Assembly (NCBI GenBank): GCA_040220235.1
Contig: JAVJTO010000055.1
From: Coleofasciculus sp. B1-GNL1-01
Lineage (GTDB): Bacteria; Cyanobacteriota; Cyanobacteriia; Cyanobacteriales; Coleofasciculaceae
DNA length: 64,000 nucleotides
Direction: 5' to 3' (one strand)
Shown here piece by piece: positions 1,052-57,901 of the stretch. The position numbers and the translations under genes were made by a program. Every line of letters starts with the position of its first letter. The first letter of the stretch is position 1. A model generated the notes under the pieces. It was not told the origin of the DNA and searched no databases. It was given only the letters and a program-made list of their open reading frames with translations.

Positions 1052-1450
1052 GATAGTGACGTAGTTTTATTTCTGCCTTCTGGCACTAGGCACTAGCGTA
1101 AAATAAAATATTATTATTGGAAATCAATGTGCTAAATCACGTCTTTTTAGCATACAGTTTTAATACTGAACCACCGTCCTCCACAAATACTCCTCAGACA
1201 AGGTGGCTGTAAATACTAATCTATTACAATTTCCGTTGGTTTCTGATCCCCATGGGTTTCTGCTCAACGTTAGAGGCGATCCATCAATTATTTTGTTTAG
1301 ATAGTAAAATGGAGGATAACCAGAAAACTCTCTATAACTAGAGCTTTAACATAACTTTACATTAGTGTATTATTTCTGTGAAGACAAGCCATAGAGCTTG
1401 AAATGGACTAGACGAGTATGCAACTATTTTCCTTGAAGGAGGGAAAAACA

Positions 1451-2506
1451 ATGGGGCTTCTACCAATCAAGACGACAACGACCACTATTGCAACAACGGC
1501 TCTTCTGAGCTTGGGGGGACTGCCAGCGATGGCATTTACAATCACGCCAACGAGTAATACAGATTTACTTCTGTATTCTTTGTTAGGGGATACGACCGGA
1601 CTGACTAACTTTGCTCTAGAGCTAGATGATGACAATCCAGACACACAGAATACTAAAGCTTTTGGTCTGTTTAGCAATGATCCCTTCGGTCTGGATGAGG
1701 GCATCGTATTGAGTACGGGTAAAGTCGAAGATTTACCCGGAGAAAACGAGGAAGATGGAGGAATAGAATTTTTAGGGGGTGAACCTCCGAATGATTTAAG
1801 TACTGATTTCGAGCCTGTAGGTTCTGAAGAAAACCCTCAGGCAGGAGTACGAGGGGATAAGATGACCCTAGAACTCAGCTTCGACGCTGACGAGACAGCG
1901 GAAAAGCTATTTTTTGAGTACGTATTTGGCTCAGAAGAGTTTCGTGAGTTCGGAGGAGATCCTGAACAAGATGCTAAATTTAACGACTCTTTTGAGCTAC
2001 TATTAAATGGACAAAACTTGGCTCTGCTGACTGATGGGCAGGAAGTTACGATTAACAATCTGATTCCTAATCGTGAAGATTCTTCCTCCTATCATCCTGA
2101 TTATATCAATAATCCAAAAGGCTCCCCAGTCAATACTAAGCTGGATGGTTACACAGAAATCTTGACCTTTGAAGGTCTACTCAATAAAAATGCCAGAAAC
2201 ACTATCGAAATAAAAATCTGGGATGTGGCGGATGGTCAACTGGACTCTGCTGTCTTCGTCAAAGGCAAGTCCCTCGGCACAAAAGATCCCCAACTAAATA
2301 CTCAACCGAATGATGATCCGTCCGATGAACCCCAATCCCCCCCAGAAGACCCCGTAACCGATCCTGGAACTTTATTTCCCCCCGATGACCCAGAACCCCA
2401 GAGTGTGCCAGAACCATCCGGCTTACTCGGATTGCTGGGAGTGGCAACTTTAGGGGTTCGGACAATGATTAGACGCAAACAGAAAGCTCACTTACAAGAA
2501 CACTGA
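1451..2506 (+). CDS. PEP-CTERM exported protein with choice-of-anchor L-like domain
   Basis: Signal peptide (..PAMA); GIVLSTG, FEYVFGSEEF and DSAVF motifs; Pro/Asp linker; VPEP + TM + RRK tail. Alternative start 1418. Confidence 0.85.
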   Translation: MGLLPIKTTTTTIATTALLSLGGLPAMAFTITPTSNTDLLLYSLLGDTTGLTNFALELDDDNPDTQNTKAFGLFSNDPFGLDEGIVLSTGKVEDLPGENEEDGGIEFLGGEPPNDLSTDFEPVGSEENPQAGVRGDKMTLELSFDADETAEKLFFEYVFGSEEFREFGGDPEQDAKFNDSFELLLNGQNLALLTDGQEVTINNLIPNREDSSSYHPDYINNPKGSPVNTKLDGYTEILTFEGLLNKNARNTIEIKIWDVADGQLDSAVFVKGKSLGTKDPQLNTQPNDDPSDEPQSPPEDPVTDPGTLFPPDDPEPQSVPEPSGLLGLLGVATLGVRTMIRRKQKAHLQEH

Positions 2507-2633: not shown

Positions 2634-4175
<1,542 letters not shown>

Positions 4176-4228
4176 TCCCTTCCGTGTTTCGAGTCATTAG
4201 TCATGAGGCTGTTCTAAGCTGATGACTA

Positions 4229-4454
4229 TTCACCAACCTTGCCCTAAAAGGGACAAGGATTGACGCCAGTTTGGACAATGTAAGCGGTGAATAGCTTTTT
4301 GAGCCTAGTTCTGGCACAGACTTCTGAATACTTCCCTAGTTCGGACTATCTCTAAGCCTAATTGGTTAGGCGTTGGGTAATGCCAAGACATCTTGGACTG
4401 GGTAGGCGAAGGGACTTATTACAGGGCGAGCTGGTTCCTGGGATTATCTCCATT
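4229..4454 (+). ncRNA. Stand-alone IscB-type omegaRNA (HEARO-like) with no IscB ORF
   Basis: 5' TTCAC end; CTATTCACC 4226-4234 pairs with GGTGAATAG 4286-4294; terminal hairpin CCTTGCCCTAAAAGGGACAAGG; TCTGAA-TACTTCCCTAG-TTCGGA stem 4323-4345; 3' GGCGAAGGGAC 4405-4415; ends GGATTATCTCC-ATT where iscB ATG usually follows. Confidence 0.75.
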
Positions 4455-4520
4455 TAAAAACCAGCATTTAATTGTAAAGCTGTCTGATCAAGACAGGGTT
4501 TGGGACTCAAAGGAGTTTCG

Positions 4521-4931
4521 ATGAGCTTAACTGTTCGAGTTGTTTCTCCCGACAAAATTGTCTGGGATTCTAATGCCGAAGAAGTGATTTTGCCCAGTAC
4601 GACGGGTCAACTGGGTATATTGACGGGTCACGCCCCCCTGTTGTCAGCACTGGACATTGGTGTAATGCGAGTTCGTCCGGGTAAAGACTGGATACCCATC
4701 GCCCTCATGGGCGGATTTGCCGAAGTTGAAAATGATGAAGTAACCATTCTCGTTAATGGGGCGGAACAAGGAGAGACGATTGACAAGGAAGCCGCACGAG
4801 AAGCTTTCTCTCAAGCCCAAGAGCGTCTCAACCAAGTCCAAACCAGTGAGAATCGGCAAGAAAAAATTCAAGCCACGCAAGCTTTAAAGAGAGCAAGAGC
4901 TCGCTTTCAAGCGGCGGGTGGTATGGTTTGA
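4521..4931 (+). CDS. atpC: F0F1 ATP synthase subunit epsilon
   Basis: [37 protein letters not shown]; downstream of beta subunit. Confidence 0.98.
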
Positions 4932-8556: not shown

Positions 8557-8679
8557 TACTGGCGTGGCACAGTTAAAATTGTGGAATAGATTTGACCATT
8601 GAATCGGGCGCAAGTCTTTGCGCCCCTACGGTTTCCGGGCGTAATTCTAATTCATCAAATAAGCTGTGCCACGGCACTA
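8557..8679. mobile_element. MITE with TA-flanked ..CGTGGCACAG TIRs
   Basis: TACTGGCGTGGCACAG ... CTGTGCCACGGCACTA; a third TIR-like copy at ~8480. Confidence 0.6.
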
Positions 8680-8720
8680 CTGGACTATTAGGTTTTTGAG
8701 CCTCTTGAAGAATTTCATGC

Positions 8721-9308
8721 TTACACCCTACACCCTGACTCCAGAATCTGACGGATTTGTGCCGTTTGCTGGCTATAGTCGGTATCATCAACAACGGGTA
8801 CAGCACCCTCTAGAGAAATGGGTTCAGCTATATTAATCCAAGAACGACAGCCGCCGTATTCAGAACGATAGGGTATACGTTGAACCGAGGGAAGCTTGTA
8901 GATTCGTAGTAGGAGAACATACAACGGTTGACGTGGCTTCCATTTAAAACGCCCACTGGCAAATTGTTCATTCCAGATGTGGTAGGGTAACAGGGCGTCT
9001 ACTGCGGCTTGAGTGCTGATTTGAAAAATATCGGTAATGGTTGCCCAACTGCCAATCCGTACCGTTTGCGGATGCCAACCTGAGGTGACGGGTGTTACCT
9101 GAGAGGCATAATCGGGTTTGAGTAAATGAGGCTGTTGATGTTCGTAGGTAGGATAAAGTAAAACCGGATTGTAAGTGACGTGGAAGCGATTGTTTTCTTC
9201 CCGAATGCCGCCTTTACGCAGTAGCATAATCGTCTTACCCTGTTCTAAGGCATCAACGGCAACAGCCCATTCTTTGAGTGCGTTTGTAGTTGTCAATGGC
9301 ATCATCAA
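8721..9308 (-). CDS. DUF1802 family protein
   Basis: ALKEWAVAVDAL..LLRKGGIRE..LYPTYEHQ..YGGCRSW. Confidence 0.9.
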   Translation of the reverse strand: MMMPLTTTNALKEWAVAVDALEQGKTIMLLRKGGIREENNRFHVTYNPVLLYPTYEHQQPHLLKPDYASQVTPVTSGWHPQTVRIGSWATITDIFQISTQAAVDALLPYHIWNEQFASGRFKWKPRQPLYVLLLRIYKLPSVQRIPYRSEYGGCRSWINIAEPISLEGAVPVVDDTDYSQQTAQIRQILESGCRV

Positions 9309-11466: not shown

Positions 11467-12567
11467 ATGATCGAAGTGGATCGTCTGAGCAAGCTCTATG
11501 GCGTCACTCCAGCAATTCAGGATGTCAGTTTTAAGGTGGAACCGGGGGAAATCCTGGGATTTCTCGGACCCAATGGTGCGGGGAAAACAACTACCATGCG
11601 GATTTTAGCCGGATATTTACCTGCCACCAGTGGAACCGCCCGAATTGCTGGGTATGATGTCCATGAAAATTCTCTGGCGGTGCGCCAACGCATCGGCTAT
11701 TTACCGGAAACCCCTCCCCTTTATCCAGAAATGACGGTTGAGGGGTTCTTGTACTTTGTCGCTCGTCTCAAAGGGGTATCCGCAGGCGATCGCACTAAGC
11801 GGGTGAAGATGGCAATTAAACGCTGTAACCTTGTAGAGAAGCGCAAAGTCTTGATCCGCAAACTCTCCAAGGGATTTCGTCAACGAGTGGGAATTGCTCA
11901 AGCGATCGTTCATGATCCACCTGCGATTATCTTAGATGAACCCACCGTCGGACTCGATCCTCGGCAAATTATTGATGTCCGCAACTTGATCAAAAGCCTT
12001 GCCGGTGAACATACGATTATCCTGTCTACCCATATTCTGCCAGAGGTGAGCATGACCTGTAGTCGGGTGGCGATTATCAACCGAGGTAAAATCGTCGCCA
12101 CCAATAGCCCAGAAAACCTGATGGCGCAATTGACGGGAGGGGCGGGCTATGAGTTAGAAGTGGATGGGGATGCAACTCAACTGCAAAAGCTATTACAAGT
12201 GTTGCAGGGAGTCTGCTTAGTCGAAATTGTCCCCACTCAACAGTTACCCCCAAATCGCTCCTTAATTCGGATTGTGACGGTACCGGGTACTGATCCGGGA
12301 CGAGATATTGCGGCTGTAACTGTGGGCGCTGGGATCGGATTGCATGAAATGCGCCGCACTCGCGCTACCCTGGAAGATGTCTTTTTAGAACTGACGACTC
12401 AGGAACGGAGGGCGGAGAACCTGGAAATAGAGACAGGGAACAATTTAGCTGAATCGCCTATCTCTGATTCTCCATCAGAAGTTCCTGAATCCAATGTTTC
12501 TCAATCCCAAGTCCCTGAATCAAAAGTCCCTGAGTCAGACGTTCCCCAATCAGGAGAAGATCGTTAA
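11467..12567 (+). CDS. ABC transporter ATP-binding protein (GldA-like)
   Basis: GPNGAGKTT, LSKGFRQRV, ILDEPT. Confidence 0.95.
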   Translation: MIEVDRLSKLYGVTPAIQDVSFKVEPGEILGFLGPNGAGKTTTMRILAGYLPATSGTARIAGYDVHENSLAVRQRIGYLPETPPLYPEMTVEGFLYFVARLKGVSAGDRTKRVKMAIKRCNLVEKRKVLIRKLSKGFRQRVGIAQAIVHDPPAIILDEPTVGLDPRQIIDVRNLIKSLAGEHTIILSTHILPEVSMTCSRVAIINRGKIVATNSPENLMAQLTGGAGYELEVDGDATQLQKLLQVLQGVCLVEIVPTQQLPPNRSLIRIVTVPGTDPGRDIAAVTVGAGIGLHEMRRTRATLEDVFLELTTQERRAENLEIETGNNLAESPISDSPSEVPESNVSQSQVPESKVPESDVPQSGEDR

Positions 12568-54928: not shown

Positions 54929-55615
54929 TCAATGCGCTCCTTGCTTCTTCAGAACTACAGCAATCGTTTTCAGAATGAGCTGGAAGTCATAGAGAAGAGA
55001 CCACTTGCGCTGATAAGCTAGATCCATCGACACAATATCTTCAAAATCAATCACACTAGAGCGACCATGGACTTGCCATTCTCCAGTCATTCCTGGCTTA
55101 GTTCTCAATCGTTGCCAATGATGCGACTTATAGTGCTGTACTTCATTCAGGGTGGGCGGACGAGTCCCGACTAAGCTCATCTCACCGTTAAGCACATTCC
55201 AAAATTGAGGCAATTCATCCAAGCTGGTGCGCCGCAAAAACCGACCTACACGAGTGATGCGAGGGTCGTTGGTATTTTTAAAGATATGACCTTTTGCCTG
55301 ATTTTGCACCAAATGTTGCCTGCGATCAGCATCTACAACCATTGAACGAAATTTCAAGATGCGAAAGGATTTACCTCGTAAACCACAACGAAGTTGACGA
55401 TAGAAGATTGGACCAGGATCGTCAATCTGGATGGCGATCACAATTGGTATGGCGAGAATTGCCGTCAGAAACAAGCCAACCACAGCTCCCAGAATATCAA
55501 TGAGACGTTTAATTTTGCAGGTTGCCGATCGGTGCTGCACAATTAATCGAGAGGAACTTTGGAGCTGGGGGGGATCACCCGGTAAGGGTGTGGAACCGTT
55601 TGATGTAGTAAACAC
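54929..55615 (-). CDS. Bacterial sugar transferase (priming glycosyltransferase)
   Basis: KRLIDI, KFRSM, DPRITRVGRFLRRTSLDELPQFWNVL.GEMSLVG.RP. Confidence 0.95.
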   Translation of the reverse strand: MFTTSNGSTPLPGDPPQLQSSSRLIVQHRSATCKIKRLIDILGAVVGLFLTAILAIPIVIAIQIDDPGPIFYRQLRCGLRGKSFRILKFRSMVVDADRRQHLVQNQAKGHIFKNTNDPRITRVGRFLRRTSLDELPQFWNVLNGEMSLVGTRPPTLNEVQHYKSHHWQRLRTKPGMTGEWQVHGRSSVIDFEDIVSMDLAYQRKWSLLYDFQLILKTIAVVLKKQGAH

Positions 55616-56170
55616 AGTGCAAACTCAGTTGTATTACAAGTTGTAAGTTATTTAGCCGATTATCATGTTCTATATTATTGAGAGGTTTGCCAAAAAAAAA
55701 TAGTCCGTTGGATACACTTCACGAATTCTTTACAATTCTATAGCGACTGAATGCAGTTTTTATGAAGATATGATGAAGATTATGGATTGAGATTAACGAG
55801 GATTACGCCATCTAACAATTTCTAATCAAAGCTGAAAGCGCGATCTAGGGTCTAAGTAATGACTTTACCTTTGGCATCTATCTTAAGATGTAGATTATAT
55901 AGTCATAGCCCGTTTAAATGAGGCGTGAACATAAATGGCGCTAAAACCCTTATCCAGTAAGGGTTATCATTTCACAACTGATTTAGAGGTTACTGAATAA
56001 GTAGGGGCTGCTAAATAAGTCTTGTGGTAGGGAGAGGCAATAGGGAATAGGGAATGGGAAACAGAGAACAGTTGTAGTGTGAGCGTCTCGTTCGCTATTT
56101 TGTCAGGGTTTTTATCTATGTTTCATAAGAAGACGCTATATGCAACGTCTCTAAAGTATGTTGATAGCTT

Positions 56171-57901
56171 TTATTTATAGCAATGATTAAAATTAATGAT
56201 TAAAGGCTCATCAAACGTTTGAGATAGACTGGATGCAATCAGTTTAAGGTATTGACGTAGACGCTCGTGTTGTTGGAAATTGGGACGATAAAGCCGATCG
56301 CCTACGGGTGAAAATAGGTTGACATCAGCCAGATCAGCATCAGGAAAATCTGGGAGAGAAGCTGGAGAGAACCCCCGTAGGCGATCGCCATCCGGGATTA
56401 ACCCTGACGGTAACTCACCATCCAAAAACCCCAGCAACCGTTCATTACAGGCGACTGTGTTGAGACCTTGACGTTCTAAGCGTTGCCGAATCTCTGCCAG
56501 AGTGTAATCTCGAATTCCTGATTCCTTCTCTGTTGAGGGAAACGCCTTTAGCAGTTCTGACAGCAGAAAGTAGTCACTATACTGTTGCTGGAAGCGATTA
56601 AAGACATGAGGATACAGGGGTAACCTCGCTAGTCCGGTAGCGACCCAAGTTTGGGGAAATTCACTGTCTTGAATCAGTGTAGCGTTAGGCAATTTGTCCT
56701 GAAGCCACTGCTTCACCCTGTTTGACTTAGCACTTCCTCCCGTACAGATAGCTTGACTGATCGCCTGTTGGGATTGTCCGGCTTGAATCAGCAATCGGTT
56801 GACCTGTTGGTTGAGTTGTTCAATAAACGGTGTGATAACGGCACTGTTAAAGTCTTTTTGCTGCACCGTCCATCGATACGCACCCAATTCCAGGGTAAAT
56901 TCAGTTTTGTGTGGCAAAATCAGCTTCAAATATTCAGCCGCTTTCAGTAGCGCCTGTCCTAACACCGAATGCTGTAACTCGAATAAAGCGCGATCGCGTC
57001 GTTTGGGGTCAGGTTGACCGGGTAAGGGGGGTTCTAAATCCTGGCTAAGATTCAGTTGTGCTAATTGCGCCTCAGACATCTGCGGGTAGAGTAACTGCCA
57101 AACGATATCTTGATCAATAGCCTGACCTGCGTAAGACCAACTTTGAAGTTTAAAATCGGCGTAGGTTAATTGGCGGGGATTGTAAGGCAAATCCACTAAT
57201 GCCAATTCCGTGGTGGTTGCGCCACTATCGATCACCAACGTCCAGCCACGCCCAAGTGTAGTAGATTGAGACCTCAAGGGGGAAGAGGCGGGTTCAGCCG
57301 TGGGAAAAGCGGCCAAGAGGGAGGCGATCGCATCTTCTAAAAAGACAATTTGTTGCGATTCCTTGACTAACTTGGCAGCTAATACGGCTTCTCGGACATT
57401 AATCTGGTAGGTATCGCCCCAATCGGCTGGATAACTGACAATAACACCTGCCAGTTGTGCCAAAGCGTCTGCTAGTAATTCGGATTCTAGACCCATCGCC
57501 CCTACCTGCAATGACACCTTGGTGCGAACCGTCTCTGGGGTTAAAGTGGCTAACATTGCCTGTAAGGATCGCCGTACCCAATAGAGAGGAACCCGTCCAT
57601 CGGGTAACGCTAACATTGGTTCCCACTGACGATGTTCTGGGCAATAGTAAGGAATTGCCAACGGTAAATAGGGTTTAACCGTGGACACCCTTATTCCTGC
57701 TGCTTTTACCACGGTAGGACTCGCGGAGGTTTGTGTCGGTAAGCGAAATACGCGATCGCCTGAATCATGATTGGTGGTTGACGATTCCTGTTGCCAATAT
57801 AAAGGGTAGTGCTGACCTGTGTTTTTGTTCAACACCACAGCCGACAGCCCCGTGGTGCCGAAATCAATTCCTAAGTACCAGAGAGGATTATTGGTATCCA
57901 C
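56171..57901 (-). CDS. Hsp70/actin-like ATPase-fold hypothetical protein
   Basis: LGIDFGTT, VIDSGATTT, AGQAIDQ, CTGG. Confidence 0.75.
   Translation of the reverse strand: MDTNNPLWYLGIDFGTTGLSAVVLNKNTGQHYPLYWQQESSTTNHDSGDRVFRLPTQTSASPTVVKAAGIRVSTVKPYLPLAIPYYCPEHRQWEPMLALPDGRVPLYWVRRSLQAMLATLTPETVRTKVSLQVGAMGLESELLADALAQLAGVIVSYPADWGDTYQINVREAVLAAKLVKESQQIVFLEDAIASLLAAFPTAEPASSPLRSQSTTLGRGWTLVIDSGATTTELALVDLPYNPRQLTYADFKLQSWSYAGQAIDQDIVWQLLYPQMSEAQLAQLNLSQDLEPPLPGQPDPKRRDRALFELQHSVLGQALLKAAEYLKLILPHKTEFTLELGAYRWTVQQKDFNSAVITPFIEQLNQQVNRLLIQAGQSQQAISQAICTGGSAKSNRVKQWLQDKLPNATLIQDSEFPQTWVATGLARLPLYPHVFNRFQQQYSDYFLLSELLKAFPSTEKESGIRDYTLAEIRQRLERQGLNTVACNERLLGFLDGELPSGLIPDGDRLRGFSPASLPDFPDADLADVNLFSPVGDRLYRPNFQQHERLRQYLKLIASSLSQTFDEPLIINFNHCYK

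Follow-up and report, generated by a model that had tools for sequence, protein, structure and literature searches.

A probable non-autonomous mini-transposon with a predicted IsrB-type omegaRNA scaffold on the atpC start codon of a Coleofasciculus genome

The closest described systems are the ISC1 elements, renamed IsrB according to the accessible part of PMC13565253. In the portion of PMC4810608 that is available, the ISC1 and IS605B elements of Microcystis have N|ATGA targets and CG-3' termini. The available text of PMC9581776 gives NTG(A) as the TAMs of IsrB, with nicking beside the TAM, and defines an adaptor and a nexus pseudoknot in the IsrB RNAs of Crocosphaera and Dolichospermum. As far as the open text of bioRxiv 10.1101/2023.03.14.532601 and PMC13565253 goes, TnpA peels and pastes such elements beside a fixed motif, and an RNA-guided nuclease cuts the empty site, restoring the element. 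Two further classes are relevant here: the palindrome-associated transposable elements, or PATEs (PMC4810608, bioRxiv 10.1101/2023.03.14.532601), which are short and non-coding, have IS605-type ends and are moved by TnpA in trans, and the standalone omegaRNAs cited in PMC9581776, which are scaffolds without a linked nuclease gene. These two classes and the ATGA target have all been published.

Here we describe an element in the spacer between atpD and atpC of Coleofasciculus sp. B1-GNL1-01. Coordinates refer to the window, the whole stretch of 64,000 nt of contig JAVJTO010000055.1 that was analysed; G000 denotes the genome it belongs to (a 172-contig assembly), G001-G008 are other genomes of the genus, C-numbers are contigs of G000 and L-numbers are single loci. 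The element is mobile, has fixed ends and inserts 5' of ATGA without duplication; at this locus it sits on the atpC start codon and replaces 62 bp of leader. Of its identity and mobility we are highly confident. The features of the locus are as follows.

2661..4175, + strand: reading frame that we take, from motifs in its translation (P-loop, DELSEED), to be atpD (ATP synthase beta); ORF list, stop at 4173-4175
4176..4228, + strand: surviving native atpD-atpC spacer, 53 bp, alignable to the empty alleles of G001, G004, G006 and G008
4198-4204 with 4222-4228, + strand: 7-bp inverted repeat in the native spacer, read from the sequence
4209..4228, + strand: would-be 20-nt guide, which is host flank; an arm of the native inverted repeat forms its 3' seed
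4229..4520, + strand: ORF-less mobile element of 292 bp, 5'-TT ... CG-3', without target duplication; ends set by empty sites
4229..4422, + strand: predicted IsrB-type omegaRNA scaffold with S1, SL1, SL2, S2, S3, SL4, SL5 and SL6
4229-4234 with 4286-4291, + strand: S1 stem
4265..4366, + strand: adaptor-type pseudoknot, SL2 loop 4265-4270 with SL5 loop 4361-4366; named after the available text of PMC9581776
4333-4337 with 4410-4414, + strand: nexus-type pseudoknot, from pairing and covariation
4430..4465, + strand: cap, a GCTGG/CCAGC stem around a vestigial isrB leader (4441-4451, then ATT)
4480..4496, + strand: subterminal hairpin at the target-proximal end, putative binding site of Y1 TnpA
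4510..4515, + strand: Shine-Dalgarno-like AAGGAG, 5 nt upstream of the atpC ATG, predicted to be partly paired in a hairpin
4521..4524, + strand: ATGA target motif, doubling as the start codon of atpC; empty alleles begin atpC at the same ATG
4521..4931, + strand: atpC, ATP synthase F1 epsilon, 136 aa (TIGR01216, 140.4 bits; PF02823, PF00401)

The first-pass annotation of this DNA had proposed a stand-alone IscB-type omegaRNA at 4229..4454, in a 345-bp spacer. The spacer has that length (4176-4520, between the atpD stop at 4175 and the atpC start at 4521), and the motifs that were named are all present: TTCAC at 4229, GGTGAATAG at 4286-4294, CTTCCC at 4331-4336, GAAGGGA at 4408-4414 and GGATTATCTCC at 4441-4451, followed by ATT. 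No IscB ORF follows in the ORF list, as had been said, and no IsrB ORF either; in the same list the spacer holds no ORF of at least 60 aa, except a 7-codon in-frame extension of atpC. The original observation is confirmed and the scaffold is real, yet it is part of a mobile element, and the proposed extent is too short, since the unit runs to 4520. An omegaRNA scaffold without a nuclease gene does lie within the atp operon, placed where transcription of the operon would pass through it. The interpretation given to it is partly supported, as set out below.

Like the ISC1/IsrB elements (for example ISC1-1_MA of Microcystis, in the available text of PMC4810608), the element has an N|ATGA target, a CG-3' end, subterminal hairpins and an omegaRNA at its 5' end, and makes no target duplication; unlike them, it lacks an isrB gene, measures 292 bp and carries a conserved cap over the old leader. 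Comparison with the HEARO RNA of Rfam (RF02033) gives a similar picture. All of the model (1-211) aligns to 4229-4422, with the helices in the same order, but the score is 25.5 bits (E 0.0042 for 901 bases) against a gathering threshold of 83, and no Rfam model reaches its gathering score anywhere in the window. The covariance-model check suggested with the first-pass annotation thus recovered a full-length match at a score below that of a member. Other copies of the family score 25-41 bits with the same model and one IsrB-linked RNA 35.9 bits, while the 13 HEARO matches over the cut-off in G000 are other loci, missed when the spacer was the query. No ORF for an HNH-containing IscB lies downstream, and the proteins of the nearest relatives are HNH-less. 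The element works like a PATE carrying a predicted IsrB-type omegaRNA; it is neither a HEARO by score nor an IscB locus. It differs from PATEs, which the available portions of PMC4810608 and bioRxiv 10.1101/2023.03.14.532601 describe by their ends only, in that a complete, covarying omegaRNA scaffold takes up about two-thirds of its length.

The relatives of the spacer point to IsrB. In G000 the weaker ones mostly precede 390-aa PLMP/RRXRR ORFs, and two such RRXRR proteins match PF14239 only, without the HNH insert of the genome's IscB. The nearest coding relatives encode RRXRR proteins of 365-400 aa without HNH, that is, IsrB. Several full-length IsrB ORFs with the RuvC acidic positions present occur in G000. 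A single strand folds unremarkably (z -1.28, no better than shuffles); the structure is visible only by comparison. We built a model after the IsrB RNA in the available text of PMC9581776 and applied it to 30 hand-picked ORF-less copies. In these, 94.0% of 1885 cells are paired and 39 of 65 pairs show two-sided changes, figures that are favoured by the structure having been drawn from one of the 30 rows; no shuffle of 500 scored as high, and slid controls gave 30-50%. At the family level, covariation recovers the core stems S1-S3, SL1, SL2, SL4 and SL5 of IsrB-type omegaRNAs together with both pseudoknots. The adaptor type (SL2-SL5) is paired in 95.6% of cells, with both sides changed at 3/6 pairs, and the nexus type (SL4 to the 3' strand) in 149/149 cells, with both sides changed at 2/5. 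A pseudoknot between CTTCCC and GAAGGGA had been predicted; the pseudoknot stands but its register shifts to UCCCU (4333-4337) with AGGGA (4410-4414), which pairs in all 149 cells of the family alignment against 136/180 for CTTCCC/GAAGGG. The ATGA flank also fits the published IsrB TAMs. Judged from these sequence comparisons, the scaffold is of the IsrB type and not of the IscB type.

A tree of 30 ORF-less and 44 coding scaffolds is interleaved, with at least 5 forced label changes, which makes repeated origin of the ORF-less form, or recombination, likely. The covariation may accordingly be, in part, a legacy of coding elements, and it is no necessary sign that the ORF-less form is under selection. 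A single origin of the ORF-less family was considered and is unsupported by this tree.

The interleaving would also suit a one-off decayed isrB element, in which the scaffold has lost its function and each ORF-less copy is the dead leftover of its own deletion, and a true remnant with a short isrB N-terminus does exist on contig C64. Against this reading stand near-identical ORF-less copies at many unrelated sites, precise empty sites and the yield of a search of the genome collection with a motif from the cap region. This search returned 109 loci, 89 of them confirmed by a DNA profile as having the same cap; the motif was also used to collect the ORF-less family, and its conservation within the family is by construction. 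Among the matches listed, the closest titled records are Coleofasciculus and the unconfirmed loci with titles are non-cyanobacterial. A burst of near-identical copies appears in Dolichospermum records. In a sample of 401 genomes from the order, 39 gave a match to the element at E 1e-20, a figure that includes coding relatives. As regards mobility the decayed-relic explanation is largely refuted, and as a whole we give it almost no credence.

Several other elements of G000 were observed in the course of this work. The C64 remnant (11846-12042, - strand; L014) places an omegaRNA in a second essential operon, with a 15-codon isrB N-terminus right before ATGA; this ATGA opens what looks like rplR, after an apparent rplF stop. 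Divergent ORF-less relatives, in which the cap varies and the end differs, lie at C141 ~8620-8900 (+) and C51 ~188400-188480 (+). At C34 ~55000-56530 (-) an isrB element is interrupted by an ORF, which we take to resemble a group II intron reverse transcriptase. C29:11850-13530 (-) holds a tandem pair of IsrB-type omegaRNAs, the first with a truncated isrB and the second with a full 388-aa frame.

Evidence for mobility comes from the copies and their empty sites. G000 contains four copies, the other three (in C102, C71 and C119) being 93-94% identical with sharp ends, and 17 matches, partial ones counted, occur across eight of the nine genomes of the genus; complete copies all extend to the base equivalent of 4520. 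When the joined flanks of nine copies from other genomes of the genus were searched in G000, two sites were filled and seven empty, six of these joining precisely without duplication and one with a 2-nt indel. Two congeners carry the element at two ATGA motifs 7 bp apart in the same locus. ATGA lies directly 3' of 59 of 60 unique ends, which were called from internal signatures without use of ATGA. In the single exception, L151, the position expected for ATGA is taken by the start of a second element, inserted in tandem at that junction. The element thus shows the marks of a PATE: it is multicopy, has fixed ends, a fixed 4-nt target and subterminal hairpins, has empty sites in relatives, makes no target-site duplication and carries no protein gene. 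Its subterminal-hairpin end type is also found on IsrB-coding elements from other cyanobacterial genomes of the order. A profile search of G000 returned 13 Y1_Tnp (PF01797) matches, and one tnpA+tnpB element (C86) ends in a similar, not identical, hairpin followed by ATGA; no coding element with the exact end type was found in the 172 contigs.

At atpC itself, the spacer of the related strains, whose comparison had been proposed, is empty in five congeners (G001, G004, G006, G007 and G008) of seven readable alleles, the locus being N-filled in G003 and broken in G005, which were left out of the count. Including the stop, the spacer measures 118-158 bp in the empty congeners and 348 bp in G000. 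Between the left-junction ATGA and the atpC ATGA, 62 bp of native leader are missing, a departure from the normal precise insertion; a target motif lies at each junction, a configuration consistent with adjacent deletion by a transposase or with slippage between ATGA repeats. The G008 spacer (L033), counted as 'empty', has an extra 40 bp and includes, on the opposite strand, a short hairpin fragment similar to the element's subterminal hairpin, which may be the scar of a separate insertion. In G002 the element is present at atpD-atpC with its 5' part and flank deleted (the guide, the 5' strand of S1 and SL1 are gone), and this allele shares with G000 the same right junction and one rare base. 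Neither a sister relation of G000 and G002 nor a single shared insertion is resolved by the atpD+atpC tree; a separate tree of four rows is too small to count.

The first-pass annotation offered the RNA either as a guide or as a domesticated element. For the former, a guide RNA made in abundance by co-transcription with ATP synthase would act in trans, sending IscB, IsrB or a derivative to another target. The full scaffold with both pseudoknots and the presence of nucleases in the genome speak for it, and the accessible text of PMC9581776 reports standalone omegaRNAs that work with IscB. Contigs of two RNA libraries, which show neither strand nor level, also bridge atpD into a truncated element of the G002 type. 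This allele recurs in contigs of one DNA and two RNA libraries from mats or lakes; the run data are contigs, and no sequencing run contained half of the words of the stretch. Against it, the guide 4209-4228 matches its own empty site only, with no other target in its own 172-contig assembly, where the next-best site combines a 10-nt seed match with 7 mismatches in 20. The guide is plain host spacer with its seed in the native inverted repeat, each copy of the element has an unrelated flank, a 3-nt deletion after 4264 removes three SL2 pairs from the atpC copy, and the G002 copy has neither guide nor the 5' strand of S1 nor SL1. We consider a trans-acting guide very unlikely. The locus differs from the standalone omegaRNAs cited in the available part of PMC9581776, being a predicted IsrB-type mobile unit with its own ends and target and with no trans target found in the assembly.

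Domestication, as an mRNA processing, stability or translation-control element for atpC, is also quite improbable. In its favour, the element is now the sole leader of an essential gene, its Shine-Dalgarno-like hexamer lies in a predicted hairpin, and a second species, G002, shares the insertion with the same right junction and rare base. The element is, however, a multicopy insertion absent from five of the seven readable congeneric alleles and eroded in both carrier genomes, its 5' part being lost in G002, whose sister relation to G000 the tree does not resolve. A scan of 4100-4600 found two antisense promoter-like sites and neither a sense promoter nor a terminator consensus. In a fourth run, a mat metagenome contig joins atpD to atpC through a spacer of ~6 nt; its likeness of 88 indicates that it comes from a relative. 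An allele without guide and 5' stem and another with a ~6-nt spacer imply that atpC does not need the RNA, which is eroding there. A trans-acting or domesticated RNA at atpC is thus unlikely, and this copy is probably a decaying passenger that now serves as the atpC 5' leader.

The position on a start codon is common in the family. An end could be called for 103 of the 115 cap matches, and these 103 collapsed to 84 sites; the 12 dropped were at contig ends, had altered targets or were missed by the expression. At 51 of the 84 sites an ORF of at least 50 aa opens from the target ATG, against 20.5% expected. The null was taken from G000 with our own rough gene caller, in which 20.5% of non-coding ATGA open such an ORF and 12.7% are called starts. 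The nominal p of about 1e-15 exaggerates the significance, given the non-independence of related copies and a null drawn from a single genome. When 53 target-ATG ORFs were scanned, 40 matched a family, 29 with a profile beginning in the first 16 residues. The genes include atpC, atpH, rpsP, rplS, acpP, ycf4, chlI, miaB, aspS, ndhA/nuoH, sqdB, CP12, metallothionein and pirA, among others, the short names being our rendering of family descriptions. For CP12 and metallothionein the empty allele shows a purine-rich native leader, which the element has displaced 295 bp from the ATG.

One orthologous pair escaped collapsing: L064 (101-415, -) and L118 occupy the same acpP insertion site in two genomes, and the acyl carrier protein at L064 has a 24-residue insertion near its N-terminus. 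At L062 and L066 the element sits on the start of a 25-codon ORF without a family match, which presumably corresponds to the first frame of prfB (the RF2 frameshift gene).

Two explanations of the start-codon excess were set aside. It is not special to the ORF-less form, since IsrB-coding elements occupy such sites at 31/54 (9 more had no ATGA end called), against 51/84 (Fisher p 0.73), and is therefore tied to the ATGA target. The idea that a Shine-Dalgarno sequence supplied by the element explains its success at starts is unsupported, and SD-like ends are not enriched at start codons (24/47 with such an end, 27/37 without), which also weighs against domestication; a search of the G000 assembly found no 16S 3' end. 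In a recently amplified subtype, mostly from Dolichospermum records, 5 of 21 sites open an ORF of at least 50 aa from the target ATG, the chance level, compared with 46 of 63 in the rest. This split was made post hoc; it favours gradual retention of start-codon copies over targeting of starts.

With relatives across cyanobacteria also often on start codons, the element appears as a genomic parasite and not as a guide RNA recruited by the operon. We consider it very probable that it is a non-autonomous mini-transposon of the IS200/IS605 superfamily, derived from IsrB (ISC1) elements, that has kept both ends and the whole scaffold and lost the gene, and that operates as follows. If it follows the known IS200/IS605 mechanism, it would be moved by a Y1 TnpA whose gene lies elsewhere in the genome, and host read-through would supply the family's RNA, each copy with a guide from its own 5' flank. 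A borrowed IsrB could then nick the element's own empty site (guide plus ATGA), favouring restoration after excision, and such self-guiding may be why the ORF-less family keeps its scaffold. For this retention step we put the chances at about even. Its weak point is that the resident IsrBs share only ~60% identity with the IsrB clade that has the omegaRNAs nearest to that of the mini-element. Start-codon copies may be tolerated, since the insertion spares the coding frame and the end of the element takes the role of the leader, and would persist longer than intergenic copies.

More tentatively, it is conceivable, though we lean against it, that cyanobacterial ATGA-targeting OMEGA elements use host start codons as safe harbours, where the gene stays intact, the host promoter transcribes guide and scaffold, and imprecise loss is costly. 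The ORF-less family would then be a double hyperparasite, borrowing TnpA and IsrB and over time rewriting the 5' leaders of essential genes (atpC, atpH, rpsP, rplS, acpP, aspS). The 2021 OMEGA paper, outside the scope of our search, reportedly may already mention standalone IsrB-type omegaRNAs in cyanobacteria. In the literature searched, including the available text of PMC11448079, PMC10734277, PMC9755519 and PMC8987985, we did not find a PATE combined with an IsrB-type omegaRNA. A full-text search, beyond whose reach lay the primary papers on standalone omegaRNAs and HEARO, likewise returned no link to start codons, and the term 'start codon' is absent from the accessible text of PMC4810608.

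The atpC locus alone, a mini-transposon in an operon spacer, is of little consequence. The pattern of the family offers a natural test of why OMEGA RNAs persist without a nuclease, namely whether through self-retention by a borrowed IsrB, and since a transposon target motif can coincide with a start codon, such elements can replace the ribosome-binding regions of housekeeping genes. Elsewhere in the window, 1418-2506 (+) encodes a 362-aa protein with a VPEP motif, a hydrophobic stretch and basic residues at its end, which we take to be typical of PEP-CTERM sorting.
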